From: an uncultured bacterium
Lineage (GTDB): Bacteria > Babelota > Babeliae > Babelales > Vermiphilaceae
Reading direction: 5' to 3'
Assembly: GCA_963702025.1 (NCBI GenBank)
Contig: OY969699.1
Coordinates: 389,746 to 453,745 of the forward strand
DNA: 64,000 nt
Each line of letters opens with the position of its first letter. Position 1 is the stretch's first letter. The notes below the pieces were generated by a model, which searched no databases, was not told the origin of the DNA, and worked only from the letters and a program-made list of their open reading frames with translations. Shown one piece after another: positions 3,211-61,513 of this stretch. A program made the position numbers and the translations under genes.

Positions 3211-4017
3211 TTATGCCGGTGCTAAGAAATCTTGAGCCGCTTTGCAACCGGATTTTGCCAAGCGGTATGCTTGCTCGTATAACAGTATGCGAAGAATTAC
3301 ATCAGCACAACTTTTTTGCCCGAGTTGAGCAAATGAACTCCAGCATAGTGTATGAAGTGAGTCCATACTGCCATTGATAATTCCTTTGCAAATATCACTT
3401 GAAAGCCATTCATTATTTATCCACGATTTTTGGCAAGATTGAACAGGCGAATTTTTTTGACGCGCAAGAAACTGCGCAGATAAATCCAATGCGGTTTGCA
3501 ATCCAATTGCTTGTGCCATGGCAAATGATATGTTGCATATATAATTATTTTGAGCAATGTAGGAAAGGCCCAAGCATGCTGCTGCAAACGTGCATTGAGC
3601 AGTCTTGCATAGCATAGGATTTTTCAATAACTTAGCAACGGTGCTATTTGCTTCTTCGCCCAAGGCATAACTTGTGCCGGATGCAATAGTTTGGACTAAT
3701 TCCGGATCACAAAAATCGCAACGGCTCAGAAGCAAAAATCCCGTTCCGGTGGTTAAGGCCCACCATGATACTTTGCTTGCAAGAATACTCACAATAACAG
3801 GAATTCCTTTAGTTTTGCAGACATCGGCACATAATTTCCCCGAAGCTTGTATATCTTCAAGTGATATCGTTTTGCCTTCAGTCAATAGTTCAGGAATTGC
3901 GCTTACGGTAAATTGTCCGGTAGCATTTAAGGGATCAATTACGGTTCCGGGTGCCATTGCAGATAGAGGAATGCTAAAAAATATTAGAAAAGTGAGAAAA
4001 AAATGTTTGAAACCCAT
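3211..4017 (-). CDS. hypothetical secreted protein
   Basis: ORF with a GGAGG RBS upstream of the ATG at 4017. Signal peptide MGFKHFFLTFLIFFSIPLSAMAP. No family recognised. Confidence 0.5.
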   Translation of the reverse strand: MGFKHFFLTFLIFFSIPLSAMAPGTVIDPLNATGQFTVSAIPELLTEGKTISLEDIQASGKLCADVCKTKGIPVIVSILASKVSWWALTTGTGFLLLSRCDFCDPELVQTIASGTSYALGEEANSTVAKLLKNPMLCKTAQCTFAAACLGLSYIAQNNYICNISFAMAQAIGLQTALDLSAQFLARQKNSPVQSCQKSWINNEWLSSDICKGIINGSMDSLHTLCWSSFAQLGQKSCADVILRILLYEQAYRLAKSGCKAAQDFLAPA

Positions 4018-4097
4018 AAAAACCTCCACAATTAGTTTTAGGTACTTTTAAGAATACCAGAAATATAATCATTGTCAAAAATTGACAAACAGAATTA

Positions 4098-5066
4098 TTA
4101 AACCAGCTTCCGGCTCAAAAAAAACGCTTTTACCTTCTCATTTTGCGCATAATCAGCAGGAGTTTTTTTATATTTATCTTCTAAAGAGCAGTCTGCCCCT
4201 TGTTCAAGCAAATACTCAATTACCTTAAGGTTTGGAGGCCAATGATACATTTTCTCTTCTTCCATTTTTTCAACTATTATATGCAATGGCGTGAGTCCAT
4301 CTTTATTCTGCGCGTCAACATCCGCACCCGCTTTACACAGTAATCGTATACTATCAAAATAAAAGTATCTGCATGCCTTGTGCAGAGCTGTTTCTTTATG
4401 TATATCGCATGCATTACTATTGGCACCATTTTTTAGGAGCCAAATAATAGCTTTTTTTCTGATCTGTGTGTTTCCTAATGCCATCCAAATGAGTGGTGTT
4501 TCATTATAGAGATTACGTGCCTCTATGTTGGCACCATACTGCTTAAGTATATCAGCAGCTTTTGTATCTCCTTGGAGTAAGCAATGAAAAAGTGCGGTAT
4601 TGTCAAGCATGGCATCGTCAGGATAATTCACATCCGCAATACCTTTTTCAAGCAGTGATTTTATGAGTGCTACTTTAGTTTCCTCTACCATCGCATAAGA
4701 CATGGCTAAATTCAAAAGGACTCTATTATCAATCTTGATAATATCAGACTGAATTTTTGTATAGTGCTTACCTAATTTTATAATCGGATAACTAAGAGAT
4801 AGATTTAGGAGAGCTATCAAAGGCATGGGCGCAATCTCTGAACTGATAACTACGAAATTTGCCAACCCTATTCCGGCACAAAAAAATGTGCCGGCTAAAA
4901 TCATGCCCTCTTTATCATGCTTAAAAAGAAATTTTGCAGCCTGAGCATAATTATAGGCTTCTTGCGCATATTCATGAATCATTTTTTTAGTATTATCAGA
5001 TAAAAAATTCATACCAAAAAAATGTGTTGGCAGTATCAATAATAAAATAAAAATGCTTTTTTTCAT
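4098..5066 (-). CDS. ankyrin-repeat protein with signal peptide/TM region
   Basis: Repeats such as TALHKACRYFYFDSIRLLCKAGADVDAQNKDGLTPLHI and ETPLIWMALGN...LLKNGANSNA. The start ATG overlaps the upstream gene's stop (ATGA). Confidence 0.85.
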   Translation of the reverse strand: MKKSIFILLLILPTHFFGMNFLSDNTKKMIHEYAQEAYNYAQAAKFLFKHDKEGMILAGTFFCAGIGLANFVVISSEIAPMPLIALLNLSLSYPIIKLGKHYTKIQSDIIKIDNRVLLNLAMSYAMVEETKVALIKSLLEKGIADVNYPDDAMLDNTALFHCLLQGDTKAADILKQYGANIEARNLYNETPLIWMALGNTQIRKKAIIWLLKNGANSNACDIHKETALHKACRYFYFDSIRLLCKAGADVDAQNKDGLTPLHIIVEKMEEEKMYHWPPNLKVIEYLLEQGADCSLEDKYKKTPADYAQNEKVKAFFLSRKLV

Positions 5067-5839
5067 GAATCTTTAAATTTTAAGAATTTTTTTGCTTCTT
5101 CTAATGTCTGCGGGCTGGCATAAGCCGGCGGATTCTTTTTGTGAATATCTTTAATTGATAATATAGCCCCCTGCCTGTTAAGCACTTCAATTAAATCAAT
5201 ATTACCTGTTTTAAATGCATAATGTGACGCAGTTTTGAACTCTGCGTTTTGTGCATTTACATTTGCGCCATTATTCAGTAGCCAGTGAATGCCAGTTTTG
5301 ACCTCCTGTGTAGTATGCATTTGAGAGAGTGTGATAAGCGCTGGCTCTTCATCGTTTGACGTTATATTAACTGGCGCATTGTATGCTTTAAGAAGATTTG
5401 CTATTTCAATATTGCCAGTTTTAAGTGCTGCTTTTAAGCATCGGTGACCGTAATCATTATTGAGATTAGTAAATTCATTATTTAATAATTTTTTTAATTC
5501 CCCAATTTGTTGACGAGCGGTACTACCATAGATTTGTAAGTGTAAATCTTTAATATATTGCTGCTTGGCATGAATTCCCATGTCTGCCCAAATATAGGAA
5601 AATAGACTAGAACTAACCAAAAAAAATGAAATTTCTAAGTAAGGTTCGGCAGGATGTACAGAAATGGCCTTAGAAAGAACGGCTAAAAGTATATAAGAGA
5701 AAAAAGTATTGCTGAAAGACTTTTTACAATTAAAGGCAAAGCCGTCTTTTAGATCTCTCCATGTTATTTTTTTAGTATTTTCCATGCTTGCCGATGGCAA
5801 AAAGAAAATTAATGGCAATAGCCAGGTATAATGCTTCAT
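5063..5839 (-). CDS. ankyrin-repeat protein with signal peptide
   Basis: Motifs LKTGNIEIANLLKAYNAPVN, LLNNGANVNAQNAEFKTASHYAFKTGNIDLIEVL. An ATG at 5839 follows an AGGAG RBS; the ORF-track start at 5857 is a TTG. Confidence 0.8.
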   Translation of the reverse strand: MKHYTWLLPLIFFLPSASMENTKKITWRDLKDGFAFNCKKSFSNTFFSYILLAVLSKAISVHPAEPYLEISFFLVSSSLFSYIWADMGIHAKQQYIKDLHLQIYGSTARQQIGELKKLLNNEFTNLNNDYGHRCLKAALKTGNIEIANLLKAYNAPVNITSNDEEPALITLSQMHTTQEVKTGIHWLLNNGANVNAQNAEFKTASHYAFKTGNIDLIEVLNRQGAILSIKDIHKKNPPAYASPQTLEEAKKFLKFKDS

Positions 5840-5853
5840 CAGTTTACTCCTTT

Positions 5854-7213: not shown

Positions 7214-7282
7214 TGTTTTCCTGTAAATTATACGATACCTTAATAGCCTAGTTAAATTCTGATTATTTTTAAAGAACTGATT

Positions 7283-7952: not shown

Positions 7953-7962
7953 ATTTTCCTTG

Positions 7963-16983: not shown

Positions 16984-18606
16984 ATGAATATGCGTAAATC
17001 AATGAAGATCTTATCACTAGGTCTTTTACTATCTATCCCTTTTGCAACCCATCCTATGGAATTACCGGACTTGTCTCAGGCAAAAAAACCTGTTGCTTCA
17101 TGGTTTTGGAACAAATGGAATAACGTGCCAACCTGGAAAACAATAAAAGAGACTGTTTCAGCGACAACCAATGCTGTGGTAAATACCCCCCAAGCCATAA
17201 AAACAGTTGCTGCACATACTCCTTCGCTCGGGGACATGGCTCAAGCAACTAAAAGTTATGTTCAAAATTCACCCGTTATTCAAGAGCAGGCTCAAAATGC
17301 TGTTGTTGCACTGAGTAACGCAAGCAAAAATATGCCATCAAACCCTACCCTTAAAAAGGCTGGTGCCGTTGGTGCTTTGGCTGCAACTGGCTATTTAGCG
17401 CATAAAGCGTACCAATGGATTAATGCTGAAAATACTGCATTGCCAAGCTTTCAAATATTTGAAGCAAATGGACGCGTGGAGCGTATAGGCCAAGCTGCTC
17501 AATTGAATGAGCAAGGTATGCCTGTTGAGCAATTGTCATTGCAGCAAGAAAATCAAACTGAGCCGATGATTAAAAAAGACATGGCTTTAGATATGTCTGA
17601 AGCCGAACAAGCAAATTCAAGTGCTCGATCGAATGTGGACCAAAATAGTAATAATAATGACATTCGACAAGAAGAGCCGGCTAAGAAATCTGCTTCAATT
17701 CTTTCTCAATACGTTGACGTAAATGATAATAAAAAGAGACTTTCTTCCGAGGCGAATAAAGACAAAGCATTCTTAGTATCGCAACAAAATAGACAGCTCA
17801 CGGATAGCAAACTCGCTGTAGCGATGCTAAAATATGATGCTGCTCTTAAGGATTTTCAAGCCGGTCAAATCGATATGGATTCTGAGCCGATTGTTGTTGT
17901 GTTGCCAGAAGCGCTGGTGCAACCAAAAACTCAGAAAGTGGCAGTTAAATTAGAACCAGAAACAAAACCCGCTCCTGCAAGGCCAAAGCAAAAACGGGTT
18001 GATGCTGATCAACCAATGCAATATGCATATGCACGCACTGAAGAGTTGCCAATGCAACAATATTTCCCTGTTGAACAATTGATCCTTAATACTTTTGCTC
18101 AATCAAGTGCCGCTCATTCGAATGCGAATAATGATGCAGTTGATGCAAAAATAGCTGAATCATTAGATCGCTTCACTCAAGAAAATAACAATGCACCTCA
18201 AAGAGAGCATAATAAACTCTTAGAAACGGTGTTGCCGGTATCAAGCAATACTCAGTTGAAGCTTGTTGAAGAGCCTGCGGTAGAAAAACCAGTGCATCAA
18301 CTGGATCTTGTTAGAGAAGATGCGACTATAGAAAATACTCCTAAATCCAAAGATAAAACAGCGCAAGAGAAACTATTCGATGAATTATCGGTAGTTGATG
18401 CGGATGGTAATACTGCATTGCATCGAGCTGTAATTGATGGAAATGAACAAAAAGTACGTGAAATACTGAATCCATTTATTAAAAGAATGGATCTTGCCGC
18501 ACGCTTAATTCATGAAATTAAAAATAATGCCGGTCTTAGTGCTGCTGAATTAGCAAATCATATTGATAACTTTAATATTTTGCTTGTAATTATTGGTTAC
18601 CTATAA
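16984..18606 (+). CDS. secreted protein with C-terminal ankyrin repeat(s)
   Basis: GGAGG RBS. Signal peptide ...SIPFATHPMELP. A long low-complexity middle region. C-terminal DADGNTALHRAVIDGNEQKVREIL and NNAGLSAAELA. Confidence 0.6.
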   Translation: MNMRKSMKILSLGLLLSIPFATHPMELPDLSQAKKPVASWFWNKWNNVPTWKTIKETVSATTNAVVNTPQAIKTVAAHTPSLGDMAQATKSYVQNSPVIQEQAQNAVVALSNASKNMPSNPTLKKAGAVGALAATGYLAHKAYQWINAENTALPSFQIFEANGRVERIGQAAQLNEQGMPVEQLSLQQENQTEPMIKKDMALDMSEAEQANSSARSNVDQNSNNNDIRQEEPAKKSASILSQYVDVNDNKKRLSSEANKDKAFLVSQQNRQLTDSKLAVAMLKYDAALKDFQAGQIDMDSEPIVVVLPEALVQPKTQKVAVKLEPETKPAPARPKQKRVDADQPMQYAYARTEELPMQQYFPVEQLILNTFAQSSAAHSNANNDAVDAKIAESLDRFTQENNNAPQREHNKLLETVLPVSSNTQLKLVEEPAVEKPVHQLDLVREDATIENTPKSKDKTAQEKLFDELSVVDADGNTALHRAVIDGNEQKVREILNPFIKRMDLAARLIHEIKNNAGLSAAELANHIDNFNILLVIIGYL

Positions 18607-20444: not shown

Positions 20445-22997
20445 ATGCCGATGATAGCACGTATTTTGGCCATAATTTTGGGGACGAATAATGCACGACA
20501 ATTGCGAAAAATTCAACCTATTGTAGATAAAATTAATGGTTTTGAGCCGGCCATTAGTGCATTAAGTGATGAATCACTTGCTCAAAAAACCGTCGAGTTC
20601 AAAGAACGCTTAGCCAAAGGAGAAACGCTTGATGATATTCTCCCGGAAGCATTTGCGGTGGTGCGAGAAGCATCAAAACGCACCATTGGGCAGCGCCATT
20701 ATGATGTGCAGCTCGTTGGAGGCGTTGTTTTGCATCAAGGAAAAATTTCTGAAATGAAAACCGGAGAAGGTAAAACATTAACTGCTACCCTTCCGCTCTA
20801 TCTCAATGCGCTGGCAGGTAAAGGGGCCACGCTTGTGACAGTGAATGATTATCTGGCTCGGCGTGACTCTGAATGGATGACCCCCATCTACTCTTTTCTT
20901 GGCCTAACGGTCGGTTGTTTGCAAAACACTATGCACGATCATGAGCGCAAAGAACAATATGCCCGTGATGTTCTTTATGCCACGAATAATGAATTAGGAT
21001 TCGATTATTTACGCGATAATATGAAATTCCGCTTGGAAGATTATGTGCAGCGCGAATTATTTTATGCGATCGTTGATGAAGTTGACTCCATTTTGATCGA
21101 CGAAGCACGAACACCGTTGATTATTTCCGGGTCTTCCGGTGAAAGTAGCCAGCTTTATCAAACAGCAGATAAAGTGGTTCGCCGGTTAGTAAAAGGAGAG
21201 GATTACGAGGTTGATGAAAAGCAGCGCAGTGTTCAATTAACCGAATTAGGTAATGATAAAGTAGAAAAAGCGCTGGGCGTTCCCAATCTCTATGCGGTAG
21301 AAAGCTTAAATTTACTTCACCATATTAATCAAGCATTACGCGCGCACTCTTTGTTTAAACGCGACGTTGATTATGTGGTCAAAGATGGGGAAGTGCTGAT
21401 CGTTGATGAATTTACCGGACGTATTTTGCCCGGTCGCCGTTATAGCGATGGTTTGCATCAAGCGCTAGAAGCTAAAGAAGGCGTTGAGATTGAAAAAGAA
21501 ACACAAACATTGGCTGCCATCACCTTACAAAATTATTTTAGACTCTATAAAAAACTGGGTGGCATGACCGGTACAGCAGCAACCGAAGCAGAAGAATTTT
21601 ATCGCACCTATAACCTCGACGTTGTTTCTGTGCCAACTAATAAAAAGATGATCCGTGATGATAAACAGGATCTTATCTTTTTGACTAAAAATGCAAAATA
21701 TAAATCAATTGTTGCCGATGTTAAAGAGCGCCATAAAAAAGGCCAGCCGGTTTTGATTGGTACTATTGCCATCGAAACTTCTGAGCTGATTAGTGACGTG
21801 CTTACTGCCAACGGTGTGCCCCACGATGTGTTAAATGCAAAACATCATCAACGTGAGGCGGAAATTGTGGAATATGCGGGGCAAACAGGCAGAGTAACTA
21901 TCGCAACCAACATGGCTGGACGTGGTACGGACATTAAGTTGAGTCCCGAATCGGTCACCGCGGGCGGGCTATATATTTTAGGCACCGAGCGGCATGAAAG
22001 TAGACGTATTGATAATCAGTTGCGCGGCCGTTCCGGGCGACAAGGTGATCCGGGCGAATCCCGTTTTTATATCTCTTTAGAAGACGATCTAATTCGTATT
22101 TACCAAGGCGAGCAGCTCAAGAAAAATATGGAACGTTTTGGCATGAAAGAAGATGAAATTATTGAATCTTCGATGGTGTCCAAGACTATTGAACGAGTGC
22201 AAGAGCGTGTTGAAAAACAAAATTTTGATATTCGTAAACATCTTCTTGAATATGATGATGTGCTTAATCAGCAGCGTATTGTGGTCTATCGTATTCGCCG
22301 TGATGTGTTGGAAGGAAATGAAAACATCTATGAATTAGTGCGTGATATGGTCCTTAAAACTATTGAAGATACGGTTGCGCGCCATGTTCCTTCACGGGCA
22401 ATTACCGCTGAACAAATACAAGCAATTATTCATGAATTGGCGGCAATAACCAGTATAAAGCCGGCTGAATTTGAGGCTAAAAAATTTAATATAGCCAATC
22501 GAGAAACTTTTGAGCAAGATTTAAGCACCTTTATTCTTGAAAAATATGAGCATTATCGCCAACGCCAAAATAAAGATATTATTCATAATGCGGAAAAATG
22601 GCTTATGCTAGAGACCATTGATCAGGCTTGGAAGCAGCATATGCTTAACCTTGATCACTTAAAAGAAGGTATCAACCTTCGAAGCTACAGCCAAAAAAAT
22701 CCACTCATTGAATATAAGCGCGAGGCTTTTGCAATGTTCCAAGAAGTAATGCAAGATATTCAACGCATGACCGTGCATCATATTTTCCACTTAAATACCG
22801 AACGCTTTGATCAGAATGAACTTGAAAAGAAACGGGAACGTGAGCTTGATCAAATTAATCTTCTTGCGGGTCATGGCAGTGTTGATGAGGCTGAAAAAGC
22901 TCAACCGCAAGCGCGTGCAGAGCATATTGGTCGCAATGATCCGTGTCCGTGTGGTTCAGGTAAAAAATATAAAAAGTGCCACGGCGAAGGCAAATAA
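20445..22997 (+). CDS. secA: preprotein translocase ATPase SecA
   Basis: 850 aa. Contains MKTGEGKTL, DEVDSILIDEARTPLIISG, TNMAGRGTDIKL and the C-terminal zinc motif CPCGSGKKYKKCHG. Confidence 0.97.
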   Translation: MPMIARILAIILGTNNARQLRKIQPIVDKINGFEPAISALSDESLAQKTVEFKERLAKGETLDDILPEAFAVVREASKRTIGQRHYDVQLVGGVVLHQGKISEMKTGEGKTLTATLPLYLNALAGKGATLVTVNDYLARRDSEWMTPIYSFLGLTVGCLQNTMHDHERKEQYARDVLYATNNELGFDYLRDNMKFRLEDYVQRELFYAIVDEVDSILIDEARTPLIISGSSGESSQLYQTADKVVRRLVKGEDYEVDEKQRSVQLTELGNDKVEKALGVPNLYAVESLNLLHHINQALRAHSLFKRDVDYVVKDGEVLIVDEFTGRILPGRRYSDGLHQALEAKEGVEIEKETQTLAAITLQNYFRLYKKLGGMTGTAATEAEEFYRTYNLDVVSVPTNKKMIRDDKQDLIFLTKNAKYKSIVADVKERHKKGQPVLIGTIAIETSELISDVLTANGVPHDVLNAKHHQREAEIVEYAGQTGRVTIATNMAGRGTDIKLSPESVTAGGLYILGTERHESRRIDNQLRGRSGRQGDPGESRFYISLEDDLIRIYQGEQLKKNMERFGMKEDEIIESSMVSKTIERVQERVEKQNFDIRKHLLEYDDVLNQQRIVVYRIRRDVLEGNENIYELVRDMVLKTIEDTVARHVPSRAITAEQIQAIIHELAAITSIKPAEFEAKKFNIANRETFEQDLSTFILEKYEHYRQRQNKDIIHNAEKWLMLETIDQAWKQHMLNLDHLKEGINLRSYSQKNPLIEYKREAFAMFQEVMQDIQRMTVHHIFHLNTERFDQNELEKKRERELDQINLLAGHGSVDEAEKAQPQARAEHIGRNDPCPCGSGKKYKKCHGEGK

Positions 22998-23042: not shown

Positions 23043-25061
23043 CTATGGTTGGGGTGCTGGAATCCCTACCATTTTACCATAGCTCAATTGAGTTTCTCTG
23101 ATATTTTTTAGAATTGCATTCAATTGTTTTACCAAATTGTCTTTTCTATCAGGTTTGGCGAGATTATCAATGTCTGCTAAGATTGCATCAATCTCTTGTC
23201 CCGCGCGATCAAGACTTCTTTTGCTTTCTGCATTTTTCTTAAGCAACTCTTGTATAGTTTCTTTACACTTTCTAATTTGCTCTTTGCTTTTGTTGAGTTC
23301 TTCTTTTAAAAGATCGAGTTCGTCTTTGCATTTCGTAAGTTCTTCTTTTCTTGTTTGTCCTCGACTTATCATTTGATCAGCGATTTTTGCTTCTTGTTTC
23401 AGTTTATTGTTTTCCTCTTCGAGTTGAACTTGTTGTGCTCGCAGTTTTCGTTCTACTTCTTCGGCCAGCGTAAGCTTTTGACGGAGATCTTGTACTTCGT
23501 TCTTTATTTGTTCATTAACTGCCTGACGTTCTTGTGTTATTCGTTCCTGAGCTCTTTTGCGCTCTTCTAACTCTGTCTGAAGTTTCTCAAGTCTTTCTTC
23601 GGCATCGATATTTACTTCTTTAGAAGCGGTTAGTTGAGCGGTAGCAGTTTGGAGATCTTTATTGAGTTGCTCATTTTTACTCTTGAGCTCCTTATTTTCT
23701 AAAGTATAGAGATCCTCTAATCTCTTGACTTCTTCTTGCGCCTTGTGCATTACATTAATTTCTTTCTTAAGTGCCTTATTTTCATTTTCGAGATGCTCAG
23801 CTTTTTCTTTTTCTTTTACATATCTTTCTTCAACTTTACGTAATGGTTTTTGTTGCTCTTGAGATAGGAGTTTTTTCTTTGCTTCTGCCAATTCTTCAGG
23901 CGTTAATATCTGTTTTGAAACGGCGCCTAGATTTTTGTTGAGTTCTTCAATTTGTTTTCTAAGTGCTTGTTCTTTTTGTTCAGCCTGCGCAAGTTTATCT
24001 TGACAATCCTTTAACGCTTTTGGTGAAACCACAGGAATTGCTTCTTTTTTAATCTTCTCTTTTTCTTGATTTGCTCTTTCCAATGCTTTTTCATATTGCT
24101 TGATTTCATTTTCAGCGCGTTGTTTTTGTTCTCGAGCTTGATCAAGTTGTTGCCGAAGAGCATCGATTTGTTGTTGTCCACCACCGCGTGCTTCTTCTGC
24201 TTGTTTTCTAGCTTGTTCAAGTTGTCTGAGTAATTCTGCGGTAGTTTTTTCAGTCTCGGTAAGTCTTGCCCGTAAGTCTCGACACTCCTTAGCACCTGCG
24301 CCTGCATCTTTTGCTCGTTCTTCAAGAGCTCGCATGCGCACAGCAAGATCCCTTGATTCAGACGCTAATTGCCGATTGAGAATATCTGCCGCTTCACGTT
24401 CCCCTTGTAATTTACGCAGTTGTGCTTCGAGCTTTGACAATTGTTCTAGTGAGGAAATCTGCTGATTTTCTAAAGCTGTAGCAGCTCTATCACGCTCCGA
24501 TTGTAATCTTGATAGTTGTGCATCTTGTTCCTCAATCCTTTTTTGCAATGCTTGAGTGATATCGCGATTTTCGGCCATTCCTTTTTCAATTTCAGCCTTT
24601 AATCGTTGTTGTTCAGCGGCTCTTTTTTGTGTCTCTTCCTTTCGCTGTGCCTCGCGGCGCCGTGCTTCGGTTTCTACTGCTCTTCGTTCTTCTTCGATTC
24701 GTTTTTTTCGCGCCGCCTGTTCTTCTTCTGTTCGTGCTGCGGCCCGTTCTCGTTCGTATCTACGCCTTGGTTCTTGAGGTCCTCTGGCAAGTATATCGGG
24801 CCCTTCCATTGCTATCCATGATGATCGTGCTTTTGCAAGATTTTGGGTCAATTCGTTAACAAGACTATCACGGCCAGCTTGTCGAAATTGTTCGATAATG
24901 TTTTTTGCCGTATCCCATTGGGTGGCATTTAATGCTTGATAAAATTGATCTTTCAATGATTGAACTTCTTCCGGGGTAAGAGGGGCTGGAGGTCTTTGCA
25001 TTGCATACAATGGCCCAGAAGCAAAAATTGTGAGCAATAATACTATTATTTTTTTATTCAC
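23043..25061 (-). CDS. secreted long coiled-coil protein (E/K/Q/R-rich)
   Basis: A GTG at 25061 is preceded by an AGGAG RBS. Signal peptide NKKIIVLLLTIFASGPLYAMQ. About 600 aa of heptad-like charged sequence follow. Confidence 0.6.
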   Translation of the reverse strand: MNKKIIVLLLTIFASGPLYAMQRPPAPLTPEEVQSLKDQFYQALNATQWDTAKNIIEQFRQAGRDSLVNELTQNLAKARSSWIAMEGPDILARGPQEPRRRYERERAAARTEEEQAARKKRIEEERRAVETEARRREAQRKEETQKRAAEQQRLKAEIEKGMAENRDITQALQKRIEEQDAQLSRLQSERDRAATALENQQISSLEQLSKLEAQLRKLQGEREAADILNRQLASESRDLAVRMRALEERAKDAGAGAKECRDLRARLTETEKTTAELLRQLEQARKQAEEARGGGQQQIDALRQQLDQAREQKQRAENEIKQYEKALERANQEKEKIKKEAIPVVSPKALKDCQDKLAQAEQKEQALRKQIEELNKNLGAVSKQILTPEELAEAKKKLLSQEQQKPLRKVEERYVKEKEKAEHLENENKALKKEINVMHKAQEEVKRLEDLYTLENKELKSKNEQLNKDLQTATAQLTASKEVNIDAEERLEKLQTELEERKRAQERITQERQAVNEQIKNEVQDLRQKLTLAEEVERKLRAQQVQLEEENNKLKQEAKIADQMISRGQTRKEELTKCKDELDLLKEELNKSKEQIRKCKETIQELLKKNAESKRSLDRAGQEIDAILADIDNLAKPDRKDNLVKQLNAILKNIRETQLSYGKMVGIPAPQP

Positions 25062-27186: not shown

Positions 27187-28052
27187 GCGTTGGAACGTTG
27201 TTTCTGGATTGTTTTTGCTGCCTCAAGCGCTTGTATAAAGAACGCTTCAGAGTATACCCAGTTAGATATTCCCTCTTTTATTGCTTTTGCCTGATACTCC
27301 CTTGGAATTAGATTGAATACTCCCGGGAAACGATTGACTAACGCTTGCTCCTCGGGTGTTAATTGTTCAGATATTACTTGGGGTGCTTTTGGGACCGGTA
27401 ATGGCCGCGGTTGTGGTTTAATTTGGGGCGCTCCTGGCTTTGCCTTTGCCGGCTGTTGTTCAAACTGTTTTTCATTTAAGGCTGTATTTACTGCCCACCG
27501 CCAGAGCTGATATGCTTGCTTTTGATCTTGTATCATCGTAGAGCCCCGTGTAGCCAATGGATTTGATTCAAACTCGAAATTCCGCCATTTTATCGATTCA
27601 ACGTTATCTCCACTACGCAAGCCAAGAATATCCCATGCTGTTGAAGAATCGCTAAGGGGATTTAAGATGAAAAATTCATTTGGATTTCTTTTGGAGTACG
27701 CATTCATAAGACTGTTTTGAATATAATTGTAGGCTCCTTTACTTACCTTTGGCCGCCCGCCATTTTTTTGTTGTTCAAGTAACTTTTTCCGTTTATTTTC
27801 AAGTTCATCTTCGATTTCAGTACGGTGTCTGATCATTGATAAATATTTTTCCTCATTAATATAGCCTTTTTTATACTGTTCGATTACATCCTTCATATTT
27901 TCTTTATTGGTAGCAATCATAGATTCAACAGTGCTTATTTGTTGAGCCAGTGATTCTTCTTGTCCCCTTGCTTGCGGGAGTTGTTCCATCCCTTTGCTTA
28001 TGTAGATGATACCCAGAAGGGTAACTAGAGAGATTTTTAATGTATTTTTCAT
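27075..28052 (-). CDS. hypothetical secreted protein with a proline-rich segment
   Basis: ATG at 28052 (MKNTLKISLVTLLGIIYISKGMEQ). Contains a coiled-coil and PGAPQIKPQPRPLPVPKAP. The 3' tail overlaps the next gene in another frame. Confidence 0.5.
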   Translation of the reverse strand: MKNTLKISLVTLLGIIYISKGMEQLPQARGQEESLAQQISTVESMIATNKENMKDVIEQYKKGYINEEKYLSMIRHRTEIEDELENKRKKLLEQQKNGGRPKVSKGAYNYIQNSLMNAYSKRNPNEFFILNPLSDSSTAWDILGLRSGDNVESIKWRNFEFESNPLATRGSTMIQDQKQAYQLWRWAVNTALNEKQFEQQPAKAKPGAPQIKPQPRPLPVPKAPQVISEQLTPEEQALVNRFPGVFNLIPREYQAKAIKEGISNWVYSEAFFIQALEAAKTIQKQRSNAWQLLGRAYGAQLSLPVPYYSSGYVYFLQPAPPAVLI

Positions 28053-32383: not shown

Positions 32384-32617
32384 TTAGTTTAATTTTTCAG
32401 GAAGACTGCGCGGTTGATTTTTCTTATAAGAAATGGGAAGGCTATGAATCTTGCGCATATGAACTTTTAACTCACCGGCAGTTCTAAATTTCTGCAGACA
32501 TTCTTGGCGTCTTATATTTTTCACCCTGCAGATAACGTCTTCTGCATCATACATGCACCATGAAATTAATGGTAATAAGAATAAATTGATGAAATAAAAA
32601 TGTTGAAAGAATTTCAT
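32384..32617 (-). CDS. small exported protein with one degenerate C2H2-like finger
   Basis: N-terminal hydrophobic segment, then C-x9-C-x12-H-x4-H (CRVKNIRRQECLQKFRTAGELKVHMRKIH). Its ATG overlaps the upstream stop (ATGA). Confidence 0.4.
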   Translation of the reverse strand: MKFFQHFYFINLFLLPLISWCMYDAEDVICRVKNIRRQECLQKFRTAGELKVHMRKIHSLPISYKKNQPRSLPEKLN

Positions 32618-35288: not shown

Positions 35289-36461
35289 TTATGGTAATTT
35301 CTGTATCAATTGGGCATATGTTTTAGCACCACATGCACGTGCTTTATCAATAGCTTCTTGAATCATAGGATCATTTTGAAATTGCTCAAAAGTTGCCAAA
35401 AGCATATCCAATCCAGTCATTTTTGTTTTATTTTGGAGAGTGAATATCCAATTGATATCAGCGCCGGCATTAATTATTCTATTAATAGTCTCAATGCTAC
35501 AATATATTATAAACATGCTGAGAAATGGTTTACAAATTGTTGAATTAAGCGGGAACATGCACTGCACCAGTGCGCTATGATCAAGTAATAACCCTATAAT
35601 AGCATCTATATCCATAGGAGATTTTTCGGGCGAATCTGCGATTTTATTTGTATATGCAATAAACGCCAACGTTGCGGCTTGTTGTGGTTTAAGAGAATGC
35701 TTCAAGAGAAAATTAATCAATTCGTAGTCATCATTTTCTATAACTTTCTCCCACATTATTTCAATACTTATGTTCTTGCCTTGATTTAAATATGATTTTA
35801 TTCTTTTCAGGACATTTATCGAATCGCACACGGGGTATCGTTTGCTGTCTTGGGTAAATATTTCAATTAGGTGATCACACAAAGATTCTTTTTGTCTCTT
35901 GCTCAGAGAGTCATTCTTGAAAATTATAACGTAAATCAATGCTTGAATTGCTCTATCGGATAATCCTGCCGTTTTCTTGGTCAGAAGTTCATCGATTTTC
36001 TCTTTAATTGCATCAAATGTTGTTGACGATTTCAAATGAGACTCTAAAGCGGCTATCAATAGGCTTGAGGATCCCTTTATTTCATCAAATTGTAAGATTG
36101 ATTCAATATTTTTTTGGCAAAATTCCTCAATAAGCTTTTGCACCGTTATTTGTGCATCCGAAGCGAGAGCTGTTTTTTTTCTAATTATATGAAGCAGCTC
36201 AAGTTTAGCAGCAAATGAAAGGTTATGATTATCAGCGATCAGGCAAGCGGCAGGAAGATAGCTACAGTCGTCTAAAGCTTTAATATTCTCTAAAATAGTA
36301 ATTTTATCTGTTTTTTCGAAAAAGGGTGCTATTTGATCTTGCAATTGAGCAATTTGCGCTTCTTTTTGCTCAATTCGCTCTTGTTCTTGTGTTTTCATGC
36401 CGAAAGTATAAGCAGGAATAAGGCATAAAAAAACCATGCTCAAGCGATTAAAAGTATTCAT
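35289..36461 (-). CDS. secreted hypothetical protein with ankyrin-like C-terminal repeats
   Basis: Signal peptide MNTFNRLSMVFLCLIPAYTFGMK. Contains LINFLLKHSLKP, IIGLLLDHSALV and INRIINAGADINW. Confidence 0.45.
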   Translation of the reverse strand: MNTFNRLSMVFLCLIPAYTFGMKTQEQERIEQKEAQIAQLQDQIAPFFEKTDKITILENIKALDDCSYLPAACLIADNHNLSFAAKLELLHIIRKKTALASDAQITVQKLIEEFCQKNIESILQFDEIKGSSSLLIAALESHLKSSTTFDAIKEKIDELLTKKTAGLSDRAIQALIYVIIFKNDSLSKRQKESLCDHLIEIFTQDSKRYPVCDSINVLKRIKSYLNQGKNISIEIMWEKVIENDDYELINFLLKHSLKPQQAATLAFIAYTNKIADSPEKSPMDIDAIIGLLLDHSALVQCMFPLNSTICKPFLSMFIIYCSIETINRIINAGADINWIFTLQNKTKMTGLDMLLATFEQFQNDPMIQEAIDKARACGAKTYAQLIQKLP

Positions 36462-46636: not shown

Positions 46637-47173
46637 CTAAATATTGTTTTCTTCAAAGTTAGAAACATCAAAAAAATACAAATGGTTGGCTTTGCAGATT
46701 TCATCTGAAGGTGGTTCTTGTATTTTTTCTCTTGAATTTTTATTAAAAACGCCAATGAGCTTAATAGATCTATCAAGGAATTTTGCATGTTTTTTAGTAC
46801 GTTGAATAACCAGATATTCGCTCATGGTATAATATCCGGTTTCTCTCTTATCTTTATCGAGAATAGGATTTACCCAGTGGCCTCCTGCTTCGTGCATATT
46901 CGTTAATTGCCCGGCGCCGATGCTTAATTCTGAGAATCCTGCTTTTAACTCCGCTTTTATTTGAGCAACACAGGTAGGCTTAGTTTCTTTCATAAACTCT
47001 TCGCTGGACATACTTTGCATTGGCAATATGTGGAGTGCTGCAAAGAGTAGTGCCGTTGCAGTAATTATTTTTATTCTACTTCGCAAGAAAACCTTGGATG
47101 GTTTTTTGCTTCGAAGAATTGCAGCACGATACAACGACTCAAAAGCCGTTGCGCGCTTCATTTGTCTGTTCAT
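46637..47173 (-). CDS. hypothetical exported protein
   Basis: 178-aa ORF with a basic N-terminus and hydrophobic segment ITATALLFAALHILPMQSM. No family recognised. Confidence 0.45.
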   Translation of the reverse strand: MNRQMKRATAFESLYRAAILRSKKPSKVFLRSRIKIITATALLFAALHILPMQSMSSEEFMKETKPTCVAQIKAELKAGFSELSIGAGQLTNMHEAGGHWVNPILDKDKRETGYYTMSEYLVIQRTKKHAKFLDRSIKLIGVFNKNSREKIQEPPSDEICKANHLYFFDVSNFEENNI

Positions 47174-48256: not shown

Positions 48257-49420
48257 ATGAAAAAACTTTTATTAATACTCGTTAGTTCTGCTTCAGCATT
48301 AAACATGAATGCTGAGCCAATATCAGAATTTGTTACATGGGCCAAAGATCCTTTCACCAACATTATGGTTAATGAAGGCGTGAGCGCTTTAGGCAAAGAT
48401 GCAAAGGCTTTGGCTGCCGCATCATGGAAACTTGCACAAGATGGCTACAAAATGTTGCCCAGTAAAGAAGTCCTCTTGAAATCAGTAAAAGATGGTGGAA
48501 ACAAATCTTATGCTGCGGCCAGAAGTTTTATTACCAGTAACCCGAGGGCTACAATTTTTACTGCAGTAGGCGCCGCATTCGCTGCTCCGCTTATAGCCGG
48601 TTTGATCGCATCTTTTTATGATGAAAAAAAACGCACTGCGGAAGAAAACGAATTGAGATCCTTGCAGGTTATTATCTATGGTATCAAAGATTATTTGAAT
48701 AAATTTCCCGATGAAAGCACTAATCCATTAGATCCTGAAATTACACGCTTTAATAATGAAATCATGTTACGTGCATTTTATGACACCTTAAAATATGCAA
48801 GTGAAGAATTAAATAACTGTTCACAATGCTTTGTAAATTTAAATCTTAAAAGTCAAATTGATAATGTAATAAAAATTATCAATAATGATATGACCGTAAT
48901 AGGATTGGAAAACAAAGAGTTTGAAAAGGCTTTTATTGATTTAAAAGCGGCCATGAAAGTTCTTAATGATTGGGTATCCACCTCATCGCGTGGTTATGTT
49001 AGCTGGTTCTCTTCTTTTATAAAGCATGTTAACAACGTTGAGCATTATTTAAATGCCCTTCGTTCACCGGTTCAAGGTGAGAAGGTTCCATCAGTTGAGT
49101 CCATTCAAGAAGACGTTCGCAAAAGAGAAGCTTATGAGACTCTCGACTGGATTAATAGAGTTCAGTTTGTGTCTATTCATCCAGAGCTGATTGAGGCATT
49201 TAATCACTTAAAGCAAATAGTATGCGAAGACATTACAAACGTAACGGTCAATAATGCGGAATTAAAAAGATTGCTATACGGTTTAGAGCAAAGCGCATTC
49301 ACGCGTTTACAAAAAATTGATAAATCAATTGCGGTCTCTGTTGCTTTTGGAGCTATTCCAACAATAAGCTTTCCGCTTATTGCGTTTGCAAAGATTGTAG
49401 AAGGATTCGATCATCAATAG
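48257..49420 (+). CDS. hypothetical exported/membrane protein
   Basis: 387-aa ORF with signal peptide MKKLLLILVSSASALNMN, an internal TM (IFTAVGAAFAAPLIAGLIASF) and a C-terminal hydrophobic segment. No family recognised. Confidence 0.5.
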   Translation: MKKLLLILVSSASALNMNAEPISEFVTWAKDPFTNIMVNEGVSALGKDAKALAAASWKLAQDGYKMLPSKEVLLKSVKDGGNKSYAAARSFITSNPRATIFTAVGAAFAAPLIAGLIASFYDEKKRTAEENELRSLQVIIYGIKDYLNKFPDESTNPLDPEITRFNNEIMLRAFYDTLKYASEELNNCSQCFVNLNLKSQIDNVIKIINNDMTVIGLENKEFEKAFIDLKAAMKVLNDWVSTSSRGYVSWFSSFIKHVNNVEHYLNALRSPVQGEKVPSVESIQEDVRKREAYETLDWINRVQFVSIHPELIEAFNHLKQIVCEDITNVTVNNAELKRLLYGLEQSAFTRLQKIDKSIAVSVAFGAIPTISFPLIAFAKIVEGFDHQ

Positions 49421-49478: not shown

Positions 49479-49859
49479 ATGAATACTTTCAAATCTATGT
49501 TATCAGTAGCAGTGTTATTGTCAGGTATGTCAGCAGCTGCTTTTCCAGGTCAAGCATTCATTCAAGCTATTAGAGCAAGAATACCATCTATGCCATCTAT
49601 GCCTTCCAAAAAAGATGCTTCTGAATTTTTAGCACTTGCTAGTGCTACAGCTGGAAATACGTTGAACAATGCATATCAATGTGCTCAACCGTATTTGACC
49701 AAGAAAACTGCTGCTATTTCAGCAGGCGTTATAGCTACTACCGCTGCCACCGCGGTTGCCTACAAAAAAGGTTACTTTGGTAAAGCAGCTAACGTTGTTG
49801 CAAATGCTGCAAAAGCTGCAAAAAATGCAGCAGCTGCAAAATTTGCGAGCAAAAAGTAA
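49479..49859 (+). CDS. small exported protein with conserved AYKKGYFGKAAN C-terminal module (paralogue 1)
   Basis: GGAGG RBS before the ATG at 49479. Signal peptide, Ala-rich TM segment, basic tail. Confidence 0.5.
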   Translation: MNTFKSMLSVAVLLSGMSAAAFPGQAFIQAIRARIPSMPSMPSKKDASEFLALASATAGNTLNNAYQCAQPYLTKKTAAISAGVIATTAATAVAYKKGYFGKAANVVANAAKAAKNAAAAKFASKK

Positions 49860-49940: not shown

Positions 49941-50318
49941 ATGAAATTAAAAAAAATTATTTTATCAGCAGCATCTGTAGCATTATTGCAATCGATGTCT
50001 GTTGTGGCTGGAATACCAACTAAAGATTTCAACTTCTTAGAAGATTCGGCTCATTTAGAAAAATGTTTAGAGTTTGCACCGCAGGCGTTTTTTGATGTCC
50101 AGAAAAGTATTACGAGCACTATGAAAAATTTTGCGACCAATACTCTTACTAAACGTAATGTTATTGGTGCAGCAGTAGTTGCAACCGTTGTAGGTTCCGC
50201 TGTTGTTGCCTATAAAAAAGGTTACTTTGGTAAAGCAGCTAACTTTGTTGTAAATACCGCAAAATTAGCAAAAAAAGCATTAACCGGCCCAATAGTTGAT
50301 CCAAATTCAGGTAAGTAA
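49941..50318 (+). CDS. small exported protein with conserved AYKKGYFGKAAN C-terminal module (paralogue 2)
   Basis: MKLKKIILSAASVALLQSMSVVAG signal peptide. Same C-terminal module as paralogue 1. The start is uncertain (49929 or 49941). Confidence 0.45.
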   Translation: MKLKKIILSAASVALLQSMSVVAGIPTKDFNFLEDSAHLEKCLEFAPQAFFDVQKSITSTMKNFATNTLTKRNVIGAAVVATVVGSAVVAYKKGYFGKAANFVVNTAKLAKKALTGPIVDPNSGK

Positions 50319-55535: not shown

Positions 55536-56009
55536 ATGCGTAAAATATTTATTTTCTTACTGCTGCTTATAAGCAATAATATATTGCATTCAATGAAGCT
55601 CTCTGATATTCACAAAAAGAATTGTATAGGGCAAATTCCGTTACACGGAACTGCTTTGTGCGTTCCGTGGGTGGTTTCAGATCTTAAGACTTTTGACGAA
55701 AAAAGAGCGATTTTTGCCGCAACGTTCATTCACTGGGGCAGTAGTGTTTATGCGGCTGATGATCAGGGCAGAACGCCTTTTTTTTATGCTGAGCTTAATA
55801 AATCAGTTTTGCCAACCGTTTATAAAGTGATGCTGGCGGGTAAAATAAAAGAAGATATGGAAAATAGTTTGCCTAAACCGGATCGTAATGGTGCATATAA
55901 TTTGTTTGAAGTGCTTGCTGCTGCCAAAACAAGAGACCCTAGAGAATTTATTGAATGGCAAAAAGCTTTAGAGATTATTAATGAGCATCGATTAAAGGAT
56001 AATAAATGA
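55536..56009 (+). CDS. exported protein with degenerate ankyrin-like repeats
   Basis: Signal peptide ...NNILHSMK. Contains GQIPLHGTAL and DDQGRTPFFYAELN. Confidence 0.45.
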   Translation: MRKIFIFLLLLISNNILHSMKLSDIHKKNCIGQIPLHGTALCVPWVVSDLKTFDEKRAIFAATFIHWGSSVYAADDQGRTPFFYAELNKSVLPTVYKVMLAGKIKEDMENSLPKPDRNGAYNLFEVLAAAKTRDPREFIEWQKALEIINEHRLKDNK

Positions 56010-58634: not shown

Positions 58635-58697
58635 AGTATAGCCCTTTTAAGGCATTAACTCTATTCTGAACATTGAAAAAAAAGTAAAGGGAATCTT

Positions 58698-59990: not shown

Positions 59991-60108
59991 GGTTTCTCCT
60001 TTTTATGAATATCCAGTACAAAATTCTAAAAAATTATAAAAGCCATTGTAAAGAATTTTGATTCCTGAGTATAACCTTTGTGATGATAGTTATAAAAGAG
60101 GGATGTTT

Positions 60109-60768
60109 ATGAAAAAATTAGTAACGATTTTGTTCTTACTAGCCAACATTGCACCAGGAATGGAAAAACCGCTTGAGACGAGCAGTAAGAAAAATTCTCC
60201 TCGTAAAGAGAGTTCACCAGTTAACAATAGCCCATCAAATTCGCGTATTGGCAGAGAAAAAGGAGGAACGTTCAAACGCAAATCATTGGATATAAGCCAT
60301 CTTAAAGAAGAACTTAATAAAATTGGTGGTCCGAGTTTAGAAGATAAACTTAAAAATGCACAGCAATTAACACCACGCAGCAAAGAAAAAATATTTCAAG
60401 AAATTTTCTCTTTGCCAGACCACCCTGAATTTATACCTTATAAAGCCCGTGTTTGTGAGTTAAAATATAATGAAATGTTAGAGTTGGCAAAAGGCACATT
60501 AAGAAATATTAGTACATACCTTTCTATGAAGAATCTGAATTTTCAGCAAGAGGCACGTGCGAGCATTTCAGTTTTTCCGAAGTATTATTATAATGCCAGA
60601 CAAAACTTGATTAAGAAAATATCATACCAAAATTCCACCCTGACTGAATATGAAGGCGAGCTGGAAGCAGATAAGGATCTACTACCATTATTGTTCGAAT
60701 ATTTTACAAAATTTCATTGTCTTTTGGCGCCGATAAATAAGCAACCACCTTCGGGAAAAAGTACCTGA
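60109..60768 (+). CDS. hypothetical secreted protein
   Basis: ATG at 60109 after a GAGGGA RBS. Signal peptide MKKLVTILFLLANIAPGME. A Ser/Pro/Lys-rich N-terminal region. Confidence 0.5.
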   Translation: MKKLVTILFLLANIAPGMEKPLETSSKKNSPRKESSPVNNSPSNSRIGREKGGTFKRKSLDISHLKEELNKIGGPSLEDKLKNAQQLTPRSKEKIFQEIFSLPDHPEFIPYKARVCELKYNEMLELAKGTLRNISTYLSMKNLNFQQEARASISVFPKYYYNARQNLIKKISYQNSTLTEYEGELEADKDLLPLLFEYFTKFHCLLAPINKQPPSGKST

Positions 60769-60856
60769 ACTAAAAATGCATTTTCCTTATTGACGCATAT
60801 CATATGCCTGTGTTTAAATAGGATGATTTTCAGTATCAAATTATTAAAGAGAAAAT

Positions 60857-61513
60857 ATGAAAATAAAATTAGTACTGCTTCTCGTTTTATTGAGTGTTCT
60901 TAATTTACCAGCTATGGAAAAGAGTTCTGTGTCTAGAGTCCTTGATCCGGAAGGGTTCTATTTTGATGGTCTTGTAAATGGTCTGTCCGATCATCATAGA
61001 ATAAGTAGGTTAACGCTTGCCCGCGAAGCACATTTAGAATTTCAAAAGAATTTTCCTTACTGTAAATGGGTATACGATTCATACGCCAAAGATGATGACT
61101 TCTCGGTAGTCGCAATAGCTAACCCAAAAAGTGAGGATAAGAACAGAGTATGGTTGCAAATGTTGCCTGTCACCGATGAGGGACAATGGCCTAAAATAAA
61201 AGTTGCTTGCCTTCGCTTAGATAATCTCTTTAAAGCGCAACCTGAAGCATATATAATGCTTGCCTATACAATTGAAGAGAATGGTAAAAAATTATTTCAA
61301 TCAAGAATTGCACCCGCACGAGATTCATATTTTGCCAATTCATCCGTTGTTTCTAGCCATGAATCGAATGAGCACAAGGATAAAAAAATAATGGCATTGT
61401 TAAAATTTTTTTTAGAAGAAAAAGAGCCTACAGTGGGACAGATTAAACTGGATACCCAAATATTGCCCGTTATTCAAAATGAATTAGGTCCAAAAGTTAC
61501 GTTAGATATGTGA
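60857..61513 (+). CDS. hypothetical secreted protein
   Basis: Signal peptide MKIKLVLLLVLLSVLNLPAME. No family recognised. Confidence 0.5.
   Translation: MKIKLVLLLVLLSVLNLPAMEKSSVSRVLDPEGFYFDGLVNGLSDHHRISRLTLAREAHLEFQKNFPYCKWVYDSYAKDDDFSVVAIANPKSEDKNRVWLQMLPVTDEGQWPKIKVACLRLDNLFKAQPEAYIMLAYTIEENGKKLFQSRIAPARDSYFANSSVVSSHESNEHKDKKIMALLKFFLEEKEPTVGQIKLDTQILPVIQNELGPKVTLDM

Follow-up and report, generated by a model that had tools for sequence, protein, structure and literature searches.

The 64-kb stretch of contig OY969699.1 analysed here (the window, meaning the whole stretch; positions count from its first letter) has a G+C content of 34-41% and dense coding on both strands, with ~64 genes, ~40 of which encode a protein with a signal peptide. 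Among its genes with housekeeping functions are secA, an amino-acid ABC transporter, a BamD-like lipoprotein, an ATPase of the type II secretion system or type IV pilus (T2SS/T4P), a pseudopilin and a CDP-diglyceride synthase-type gene. Among these lie many small ankyrin, leucine-rich-repeat (LRR), POZ/Skp1-like and RING genes, together with orphans, and weak C2H2 zinc-finger or WD40-like matches occur in further small genes. Most of the exported proteins encoded here have one feature in common, which is our subject: the residue placed directly after the predicted end of the signal peptide is methionine, most often followed by glutamate. We refer to this arrangement as the Met junction.

The SecA protein of the window is 83-86% identical to that of the four closest metagenome-assembled genomes (MAGs; L001-L004), one of which is titled Candidatus Babeliales, 61-73% identical to that of ~70 further Dependentiae/TM6 genomes, and ~50% identical to that of other phyla. 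By this measure the window is assigned to a Babeliales (Dependentiae/TM6) genome. The Dependentiae are protist parasites of wide distribution, most of which have not been cultured. Many MAGs with a SecA 65-86% identical to that of the window (L001, L002, L003 and many others) are labelled 'uncultured Pseudomonadota bacterium', which is almost certainly a taxonomic mislabel.

Methionine at the signal-peptide junction

All 25 motifs quoted in a preliminary description of this DNA were found in the six-frame translation. The coordinates attached to them were gene starts, with the junction Met 16-24 codons downstream, and five cases that were off the mechanical list of open reading frames (ORFs) were settled by reading the DNA (34592, 42945, 37121, 25061 and 47020). 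Among these, the Met-Asp case starts at ATG 37121, not 37145, and the GTG start at 25061 is directly preceded by AAGGAG. Three added cases (LSA↓MAPG at 3957, LSG↓MSAA at 49527 and LQS↓MSVV at 49995; arrows mark predicted cleavage sites) bring the total to 28 junctions, 27 of them clear (Table 1). The motif consists of an n-region, a hydrophobic h-region and then [A/G/S]↓M-[E>N,Q,D,K], and the signal peptide has a length of 16-24 residues. With the Met numbered +1 and the residue before it -1, the 28 junctions have A10 G7 S7 P2 C1 N1 at -1, L8 S6 I4 A4 T3 at -3 and E15 N4 Q2 K2 D2 S2 A1 at +2; proline occupies +4 in seven, giving a frequent M-E-x-P. The site directly before the Met obeys the (-3,-1) rule in 25 of the 28 cases, and the three others (P, P and N at -1) do not fit the rule at -1.

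For comparison we used the 10-kb secA flanks of ~73 Dependentiae genomes (~1.4 Mb) and seven outgroup loci, with a home-made cleavage-site scorer that considers the -1 and -3 residues and flanking hydrophobicity and is blind to the identity of the +1 residue. All cleavage sites given here are predicted, either by the (-3,-1) rule or by this scorer. A control set of signal-peptide ankyrin proteins from other genomes (n = 44) was drawn from a general protein database; it came from a homologue search with a window ankyrin, which returned generic ankyrins only. The same kind of search with the 540-residue orphan at 16984-18606 returned near-identical copies only.

Methionine makes up 1.5-2% of residues, and at p = 0.02 the probability of at least 28 junction Mets out of 41 in the window is ~4 × 10^-38. 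With the blind scorer, +1 was Met in 13 of 31 window proteins (42%; background 1.5%, P ~1 × 10^-14), in 10 of 32 proteins from L001-L004 (31%) and in 50 of 380 from the other ~70 Dependentiae genomes (13%; background 1.8%, P ~2 × 10^-27), in whose loci it is the most frequent +1 residue. By contrast, Met was at +1 in 0 of 20 proteins from the outgroup loci and in 1 of the 44 control ankyrins, in which Ala is commonest. A regular expression for the motif matched 16 of 37 proteins at the junction and 1 of 37 when it was shifted 30 residues deeper into the same proteins. Chance is excluded as the source of the junction Met.

The next residue is coupled to the Met. Across Dependentiae, E, Q, D or N stands at +2 in 64% of cases after Met and in 34% after other +1 residues (p = 3 × 10^-6). 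When K, R and H are included, the figures are 78% and 47% (chi-square p = 7 × 10^-6), and the same set accounts for 56% of residues at +3. Hydrophobic residues are scarcer at +2 after the junction Met (12% versus 29%, p = 0.003); in the window, +2 is E, D, N, Q, K, R or H in 25 of the 28 junctions and hydrophobic in none. In Dependentiae genome papers and a proteomic survey of signal-peptide motifs (PMC4378268, PMC4776705, PMC6561590, PMC3509430) we found no mention of Met at the cleavage site, and the junction appears to be an undescribed, phylum-wide signature of Dependentiae.

Table 1. Met junctions of the window, with secA as phylogenetic anchor (the arrow marks the predicted cleavage site; aa, amino acids).
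Feature	Gene or ORF	Junction	Positions	Strand	Remark
Orphan	3211-4017	MGFKHFFLTFLIFFSIPLSA↓MA	3952..4017	-	L081 orthologue: identical junction
Ankyrin	4098-5066	...PTHFFG↓MN	5007..5066	-	
Ankyrin	5063-5839	...FLPSAS↓ME	5780..5839	-	
POZ/Skp1-like + LRR	9600-10586	...GFNIIG↓ME	10518..10586	-	
Recent paralogue of 9600-10586	10620-11606	...GLNIIS↓ME	11538..11606	-	
480-aa orphan	11875-13317	...ACNLSC↓ME(MP)	11875..11940	+	
LRR gene		...FATTLA↓ME	14063..14125	-	GTG start; LRR segments continue in other frame (13338-13793)
540-aa protein	16984-18606	...PFATHP↓ME(LP)	16984..17061	+	Pro at -1; cleavage may be PFA↓THP
secA			20445..22997	+	Phylogenetic anchor; 83-86% identity to Babeliales MAGs
672-aa protein beside secA	23043-25061	...SGPLYA↓MQ	24996..25061	-	GTG start
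Orphan	27075-28052	...IYISKG↓ME	27984..28052	-	
Weak beta-propeller/WD40-like Pfam matches	32614-34092	...FQNIHG↓MN	34033..34092	-	
167-aa protein	34089-34592	...SSYSHA↓ME	34521..34592	-	ATG start
Weak C2H2 zinc-finger Pfam matches	34585-35274	...AITANS↓ME(MP)	35206..35274	-	Matches below gathering score
390-aa protein	35289-36461	...PAYTFG↓MK	36393..36461	-	
77-aa ORF	36888-37121	...PSFLVS↓MD	37062..37121	-	Overlapped by ORF 36527-36934, other frame
Ankyrin	38193-38828	...IFQAIS↓MD	38751..38828	-	
Paralogue family	39518-40366	...TTCMQA↓ME(IP)	39518..39580	+	
Paralogue of 39518 (49% identical)	40394-41236	...AMASCA↓ME	40394..40459	+	
Third paralogue	41254-42087	...SSASYA↓MN	41254..41316	+	L082 orthologue ASYS↓MNADREE
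Ankyrin	42100-42948	...LWQVAA↓ME(LP)	42100..42168	+	
36-aa ORF	42945-43055	...APCSNA↓ME	42945..43007	+	
Ambiguous		...ALHILP↓MQ	47015..47086	-	Start TTG 47086 or ATG 47173; Pro at -1
387-aa orphan	48257-49420	...SASALN↓MN	48257..48310	+	Asn at -1; alternative site SASA↓LNMN
Small orphan	49479-49859	...AVLLSG↓MS	49479..49532	+	
Small orphan	49941-50318	...VALLQS↓MS	49941..50000	+	
157-aa orphan	55536-56009	...NNILHS↓MK	55536..55598	+	
219-aa orphan	60109-60768	...ANIAPG↓ME(KP)	60109..60165	+	
218-aa orphan	60857-61513	...VLNLPA↓ME	60857..60919	+	

Signal peptides, start codons and conservation

The N-termini that precede the junction have K or R in the n-region, a hydrophobic core (best 8-residue Kyte-Doolittle window 2.2-3.9 in the motif genes of the window), a small residue at -1 and a small or aliphatic residue at -3, as expected of peptides handled by Sec and signal peptidase I. 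In the motif genes, the first start codon follows a Shine-Dalgarno-like (SD-like) GGAG, GGGAG or AGGTG at a distance of 6-12 nt. Judged by these sequence criteria, they are real Sec-type signal peptides with predicted cleavage, and presumably use the Sec route, including SecA. They also resemble such peptides elsewhere in their h-region of ~10-15 residues and in a helix breaker at -4 to -6, and the junction genes adjoin secA; the departure lies at +1, which is normally free, whereas in the window ~70% of signal peptides have Met there, coupled to E, D, Q or N at +2. Signal-peptide length, h-region hydrophobicity and n-region charge are equal in the Met and non-Met classes, and a separate targeting route for the Met class was rejected on this ground. 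The -3 and -1 residues are likewise alike in the two classes.

The preliminary description had also raised an internal alternative start, in which the junction ATG yields a non-exported copy identical to the mature protein. Such an isoform would be an economical design, and gene finders do pick the junction ATG in several public assemblies (P0124, P0135, P0146 and P0150). However, SD cores (GGAG, GAGG or AGGA at -20 to -4) precede 46% of true starts, compared with 6% of junction Mets and 4% of downstream control Mets. The junction Met is mostly followed by a GAA codon and the true starts of the window mostly by AAA or AAT; the preference for a small -1 residue plays no part in initiation; and a parasite has no obvious cytoplasmic use for host-directed repeat proteins. 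Internal initiation is thus highly improbable. We also rejected an artefact of ORF extension, in which the Met would be the true start, because the Met lies 16-24 codons inside ORFs that have an SD-led first start.

The constraint appears to be read in protein rather than in DNA. Codons at -1 are spread over synonyms (GCA, GCT, GCC, GCG, GGC, GGT, AGC, TCA and others), and the GAA:GAG ratio at +2 (30:5) is in line with the genome-wide usage of 75:25. A DNA-level or Kozak-like motif was rejected given this free synonymous codon use at the junction; the purine at nucleotide -3 and the G at nucleotide +4 around the ATG follow from the codons of Ala, Gly and Ser and of Glu and Asp. A shared mobile 5' cassette was rejected as well, as unrelated genes have in common only 13-14-nt matches at chance level, with one recent duplicate pair as the sole exception among the 28 genes.

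Conservation was clearest in a family with POZ and LRR domains. An exhaustive search with the mature POZ-like domain of the gene at 9600-10586 against 1.84 billion cluster representatives yielded 61 relatives, each representing a cluster built at 50% identity. Of the 49 members with a signal peptide, 43 keep [A/S/G/T]↓M, with representatives at most 50% identical and signal peptides mutually unrelated. The residues at the junction are A25 S7 G5 T2 at -1, L18 A7 I6 S5 at -3 and E13 D12 Q6 K3 at +2, and beyond +2 the sequences are hypervariable across the family. The Met lies 0 to 38 residues before the domain, with outliers of 83 and 504; this variable distance, combined with the divergence of the signal peptides, indicates that the Met tracks the cleavage junction and not the domain boundary. 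In one subfamily (P0128, P0139, P0145, P0157, P0158, P0171, P0172, P0177, P0184 and P0185) the mature protein starts M-D-[FIVW]-G-x-L-[YLF]-[RD]-x, so that the constraint extends over the first 8-10 residues of the mature protein in some lineages, and not over the Met and +2 alone.

In this large and diverse family (P0127-P0186), a signal peptide and a Skp1/POZ-like domain are combined with a conserved 'SIQDYLDY' segment and with LRRs at the C-terminus; POZ modules are duplicated in P0127, P0128 and P0139, and a metalloprotease-like HExxH region is added in P0161 and P0163. The family has the look of an SCF/BTB ubiquitin-ligase adaptor mimic.

Other comparisons were in line with this picture. 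The window paralogues at 39518 and 40394, 49% identical, have only A-M-E in common over their N-terminal 30 residues. In families of L001, L004, L009, L010, L035/36/41 and L064 the Met is kept at 30-55% identity; it is replaced by Ala in L070, by Val in L030/31 and by Gly or Phe in L002. In the syntenic locus L081 (~83% identical), codons -4 to +5 are identical in three orthologues, the h-regions of which have accumulated 9 synonymous and 12 mostly conservative changes. Across small families, the Met is conserved in 43% of pairs, compared with 26% for other Mets, a difference that false motif calls and poor alignments dilute. Taken together, the sequences indicate that selection keeps the junction Met and a large non-hydrophobic +2 residue (E, D, Q or N, and more rarely K or R), and that it acts on the protein and not on the DNA. 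On the same sequence basis, the Met junction can be described as a new form of Sec signal-peptide junction, phylum-wide and under selection.

These patterns bear on two further explanations. One holds that the Met is a historical relic, the old initiator of a signal-peptide-less gene to which a signal peptide was later prepended. Enterobacterales offer documented cases of genes that gained a whole signal peptide by prepending (PMC5952966). Here, several folded domains begin within a few residues of the Met, and true Skp1-like relatives without a signal peptide (P0186 and P0178) start 2-10 residues before the same domain. A relic is nevertheless hard to reconcile with retention of the Met in so many POZ+LRR representatives with diverged surroundings, or with its variable distance from the domain. 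Junction Mets also show no remnant of an old ribosome-binding site, and their +2 bias to E, D, Q and N is unlike the second residues at the true starts of the window. Moreover, three of three checked 'signal-peptide-less' homologues turned out to be gene-calling errors with an intact signal peptide upstream. We consider a relic improbable, and disfavour it as the reason for which the Met is maintained.

The other explanation is a preference of signal peptidase, either of a dedicated second type I enzyme (compare SipW for TasA in Bacillus) or as a kinetic effect at P1'-P2'. It would account for a Met that follows the cleavage junction and not the domain boundary, and for the fact that no part of the N-terminus is more conserved than the junction codons. 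Lineages are known to differ in their signal peptidase motifs, with LxA, LxS or LFA motifs going with low-alanine genomes and proteomes (PMC3509430), and Leu is the commonest -3 residue here, which matches. Yet many Dependentiae signal peptides, including all the conserved envelope ones, are presumably processed without a Met at +1, -3 and -1 do not differ between the classes, and the window contains no signal peptidase gene. We judge this explanation as improbable as the relic.

Carriers of the junction and its possible role in the host

In the window, carriers of the Met include all four ankyrin proteins, three LRR proteins, many orphans and the proteins with weak zinc-finger and weak beta-propeller matches, whereas the solute-binding protein, PEBP, M48 peptidase, BamD and a lipoprotein do not carry it. 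Three other proteins also lack it: a RING-finger protein with a signal peptide (8741-9505, - strand; SYA↓AAK, with A or S at +1), a PLD-like protein with a signal peptide (43201-43926, + strand; SASA↓QNQ) and a PI-PLC-X protein with a signal peptide (9-1193, + strand; IIMQA↓GPK, with the N-terminus read from the L081 orthologue). The Met junction is not a general export tag: the PLD-like and PI-PLC-X proteins are likely to be secreted and do without it. Across all loci, its frequency falls with the spread of a signal-peptide protein, from 21% of single-genome proteins through 10% of those found in 2-4 genomes to 4% of those found in at least 5 (Fisher p = 3 × 10^-5). A conserved outer-membrane-like family with 42 members has the Met junction in one member only.

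That family has further features of its own. Its proteins are ~500-550 aa long, with a signal peptide, a Cys-rich stretch and the motif 'SHTFFSVRPxFQSAxPE', and are encoded ~5-8 kb upstream of secA (L001-L080). Most genomes encode it, often with 2-3 copies, and our scans gave it no Pfam assignment; it is probably a major outer-membrane protein.

Most ankyrin proteins of Babela carry signal sequences (PMC4378268, PMC4776705, PMC6561590), as do 44% of all proteins of Chromulinavorax (PMC6561590). Eukaryote-like domains and published views (PMC4378268, PMC6561590) suggest that the carriers may reach the host cytosol, and the lineage-specific, eukaryote-like make-up of the carrier class fits such a destination.

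One possible role for the junction, of a kind that the preliminary description had also raised, is that of a bacterial sorting or host-targeting tag, in which a free Met-[E/D/Q/N] made by signal peptidase I would be read by a T2SS-like system or another translocon of the parasite, somewhat as PEXEL is in Plasmodium; that machinery would carry effectors from the periplasm to the host. The near-invariance of a single residue is typical of a recognition element, and the two-class pattern, with envelope housekeeping proteins lacking the Met and effector-like proteins having it, would follow naturally. Conservation extends further in some families (MEKDEP.FP, MD.G.LYRQ), and Pro often stands at +3 or +4. 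Genes for a T2SS/T4P ATPase and a pseudopilin lie amid the effector-like genes, and T2SS and type IV pilus components are the only core secretion genes reported for the phylum (PMC4776705). Several points speak against a tag: the likely secreted PLD-like and PI-PLC-X proteins and the presumably host-acting RING-finger protein lack the Met, the POZ+LRR family is hypervariable past +2, and we have no candidate receptor. To our knowledge, T2SS substrates in other bacteria carry no linear signal. On balance we regard a sorting tag as unlikely, albeit less so than the relic or the peptidase preference, and as the chief rival of the reading favoured below. The ATPase (T2SSE and MshEN domains) lies at 30443-32155 on the + strand, and the pseudopilin, with the prepilin leader NNG↓FSLIE, at 37717-38220 on the same strand.

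The PEXEL comparison can be made more exact. In Plasmodium, the PEXEL motif RxL↓xE/Q/D is a processed element that lies behind the signal sequence, has E, Q or D at position 2 and marks host-bound proteins. The Met junction resembles it in creating, just after the signal sequence, a new N-terminus with E, Q or D at position 2. PEXEL, however, belongs to a eukaryotic parasite, is cut by plasmepsin V in the endoplasmic reticulum, depends on upstream R and L and leaves the first residue free, whereas the Met junction would arise by an ordinary signal-peptide cut with the first residue fixed as Met, and its export function is proposed by analogy. No R-x-L was found upstream of the 28 junctions.

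We favour a different reading, to which we give a probability of roughly 40%: the junction would expose Met followed by a large non-hydrophobic residue, an N-terminus that lies outside the eukaryotic N-degron pathways that we checked. From the (-3,-1) rule, signal peptidase I would cut after the small residue, making Met the first residue of the exported protein. Carriers would then end up in the host cytosol post-translationally, beyond capping by ribosome-bound acetyltransferases, and in that compartment nearly all other free N-terminal residues would serve as degradation signals. N-terminal N, Q, D and E feed into Arg/N-degrons by deamidation and arginylation, G, A, S, T and C are targets of the GASTC pathway and P is a target of the Pro pathway; Met is clipped before a second residue of the size of Val or smaller, and slowly before N or Q; Met followed by a hydrophobic residue is itself a degron; and N-terminal acetylases are described as ribosome-associated (PMC11441550). 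Met-[E/D/Q/N/K/R] would thereby form a stable N-terminus resembling that of an unprocessed host protein, and Val would be the other residue to escape the pathways considered. The observed +2 bias towards E, D, N, Q, K, R and H, with hydrophobic residues depleted, fits the set of N-termini that retain Met without forming a Met-hydrophobic degron.

E, D, N or Q after Met is the NatB class of N-termini, and the preliminary description had proposed that the mature proteins imitate it; 23 of the 28 window junctions (E15 N4 Q2 D2) do have a residue of this class at +2, and the mature proteins would start with Met-[E/D/N/Q] provided that cleavage falls at the Met. Listeriolysin O offers a precedent of a related kind, being a secreted bacterial protein that is degraded through its N-terminal residue. 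In the N-degron rules, Met-[E,D,Q,N,(K,R)] keeps its Met and avoids the Met-hydrophobic degron (PMC11441550), as the junction would; those rules, however, describe products of host ribosomes, whereas the carriers are bacterial proteins that would be delivered post-translationally to protists. We put the broader N-degron argument, in which acetylation is not required, in place of the NatB look-alike idea, with the same tentative standing, somewhat short of even.

A number of observations weigh against N-degron avoidance. Degron escape alone should favour Val as well, yet Val is not enriched at +1, and about a third of the lineage-specific signal-peptide proteins start with A, S, T or G. The GASTC pathway is described in mammals (PMC11441550), whereas the hosts of Dependentiae are protists; were its recognins absent from them, Ala would be as good as Met. 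The residues of Arg/N-degron type are only marginally depleted at +1 of non-Met accessory proteins, at noisy predicted sites (odds ratio 1.7, p = 0.049). The split between the classes is not absolute, as the Met is missing from some signal-peptide proteins with ankyrin or LRR domains. In 3-4 window cases with P or N at -1 a better cleavage site lies 3-5 residues upstream, so that the Met would not be the first residue there. Finally, arrival of the carriers in the host cytosol, beyond the outer membrane and any vacuole membrane, is inferred from domain content and the cited papers.

Three bacterial systems define the junction by comparison. In the lipoprotein lipobox (L-[AS]-[GA]↓C), the other bacterial case of the kind known to us, one specific residue is fixed at +1, as here, and defines a sorting class, but that residue is Cys, which becomes lipid-modified, a chemistry to which Met offers no counterpart. 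The 28 junctions contain no L-[AS]-[GA]-C lipobox and do not belong to the lipoprotein class, and the true lipoproteins of the window (53178, and BamD at 29305) keep their Cys. The type IV prepilin leader (G↓F/M-T-L-I-E) is likewise cut after a small residue, sometimes before Met and with Glu nearby; its hydrophobic segment, however, follows the cut and its Glu is at +5, whereas the junction proteins have the segment ahead of the cut and Glu at +2. None of the junction proteins has the layout of a prepilin, and the one true prepilin of the window (37717-38220) differs from them. The SVM signal sequence of phytoplasmas is a conserved, homologous signal peptide on Sec-dependent effectors. It is similar in being a signal-peptide signature common to Sec-exported effectors of a host-dependent bacterium, and different in being one homologous sequence, whereas the Dependentiae signal peptides are unrelated and have only the junction residues in common.

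More generally, Met-Glu/Asp/Gln/Asn might be a phylum-wide N-terminal code of Dependentiae that serves as a host passport, whether by N-degron evasion (possibly involving NatB) or as a PEXEL-like licence; we hold this inclusive proposal to be only slightly less likely than its negation. If it were true, the junction would provide the first linear, sequence-readable mark of proteins delivered to the host by a bacterium with only T2SS and type IV pilus components on record (PMC4776705), and effector repertoires could be read directly from MAGs. If N-degron avoidance in particular were true, selection would be acting on the residue exposed by signal-peptide cleavage, and a general constraint would apply to Sec-dependent effectors that enter the eukaryotic cytosol. 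A sequence mark that splits host-directed from envelope proteins would make effector repertoires predictable from metagenome bins and provide a handle on the route of effector delivery. The link of the Met junction to host protein-stability rules or to effector sorting is testable, and the RING, PLD-like and PI-PLC-X exceptions are useful for separating an export tag from a host-cytosol N-terminus.

Gene calls and further features of the locus

The junction Met has a by-product in public annotation, where the calls P0124, P0135, P0146 and P0150 begin there and thereby omit the signal peptide. P0124 belongs to the genome of the window itself (window 40394-41236; L083 6001-6783) and is called with 260 aa instead of 280. 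For P0146 (L084 1444-1500), P0150 (L085 1441-1500) and P0135 (L087 1447-1500), the contig provides an upstream ATG in frame, together with an SD-like motif and a typical signal peptide. Homologues that truly lack a signal peptide and start at the Met were rejected as a class, because three of four candidates were checked on their contigs and all three had the upstream signal peptide; P0125 is cut by a contig end. As gene finders often start these genes at the junction Met, published Dependentiae secretome sizes are probably underestimates.

Several exported paralogues stand in tandem in the window: one array, at 39518-42948 (+), consists of three related genes and then an ankyrin gene, and pairs occur within 9600-11606 (-) and 14528-16813 (+). 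In the pair at 14528 and 15692 the signal peptides end ...YSG↓AVLW and ...HPG↓AILW, without Met. The secA neighbours in L002 and L003 have ING↓MQP and LFA↓MQP, comparable with the window protein at 23043-25061.

The 36-aa (42945-43055) and 77-aa (36888-37121) ORFs contain little beyond a signal peptide and a Met-Glu or Met-Asp junction, and are probably remnants of decayed effector genes. A zinc-finger gene at 36527-37121 that would be a frameshifted paralogue of the gene at 34585 was rejected, as no similarity was found between them. The LRR gene at 13338-14125 (-) is split over two frames, with a signal-peptide-Met-Glu ORF at 13775-14125 followed by LRR ORFs (tblastn hits in frames -1 and -3), and is either a frameshifted pseudogene or the product of a sequencing error.

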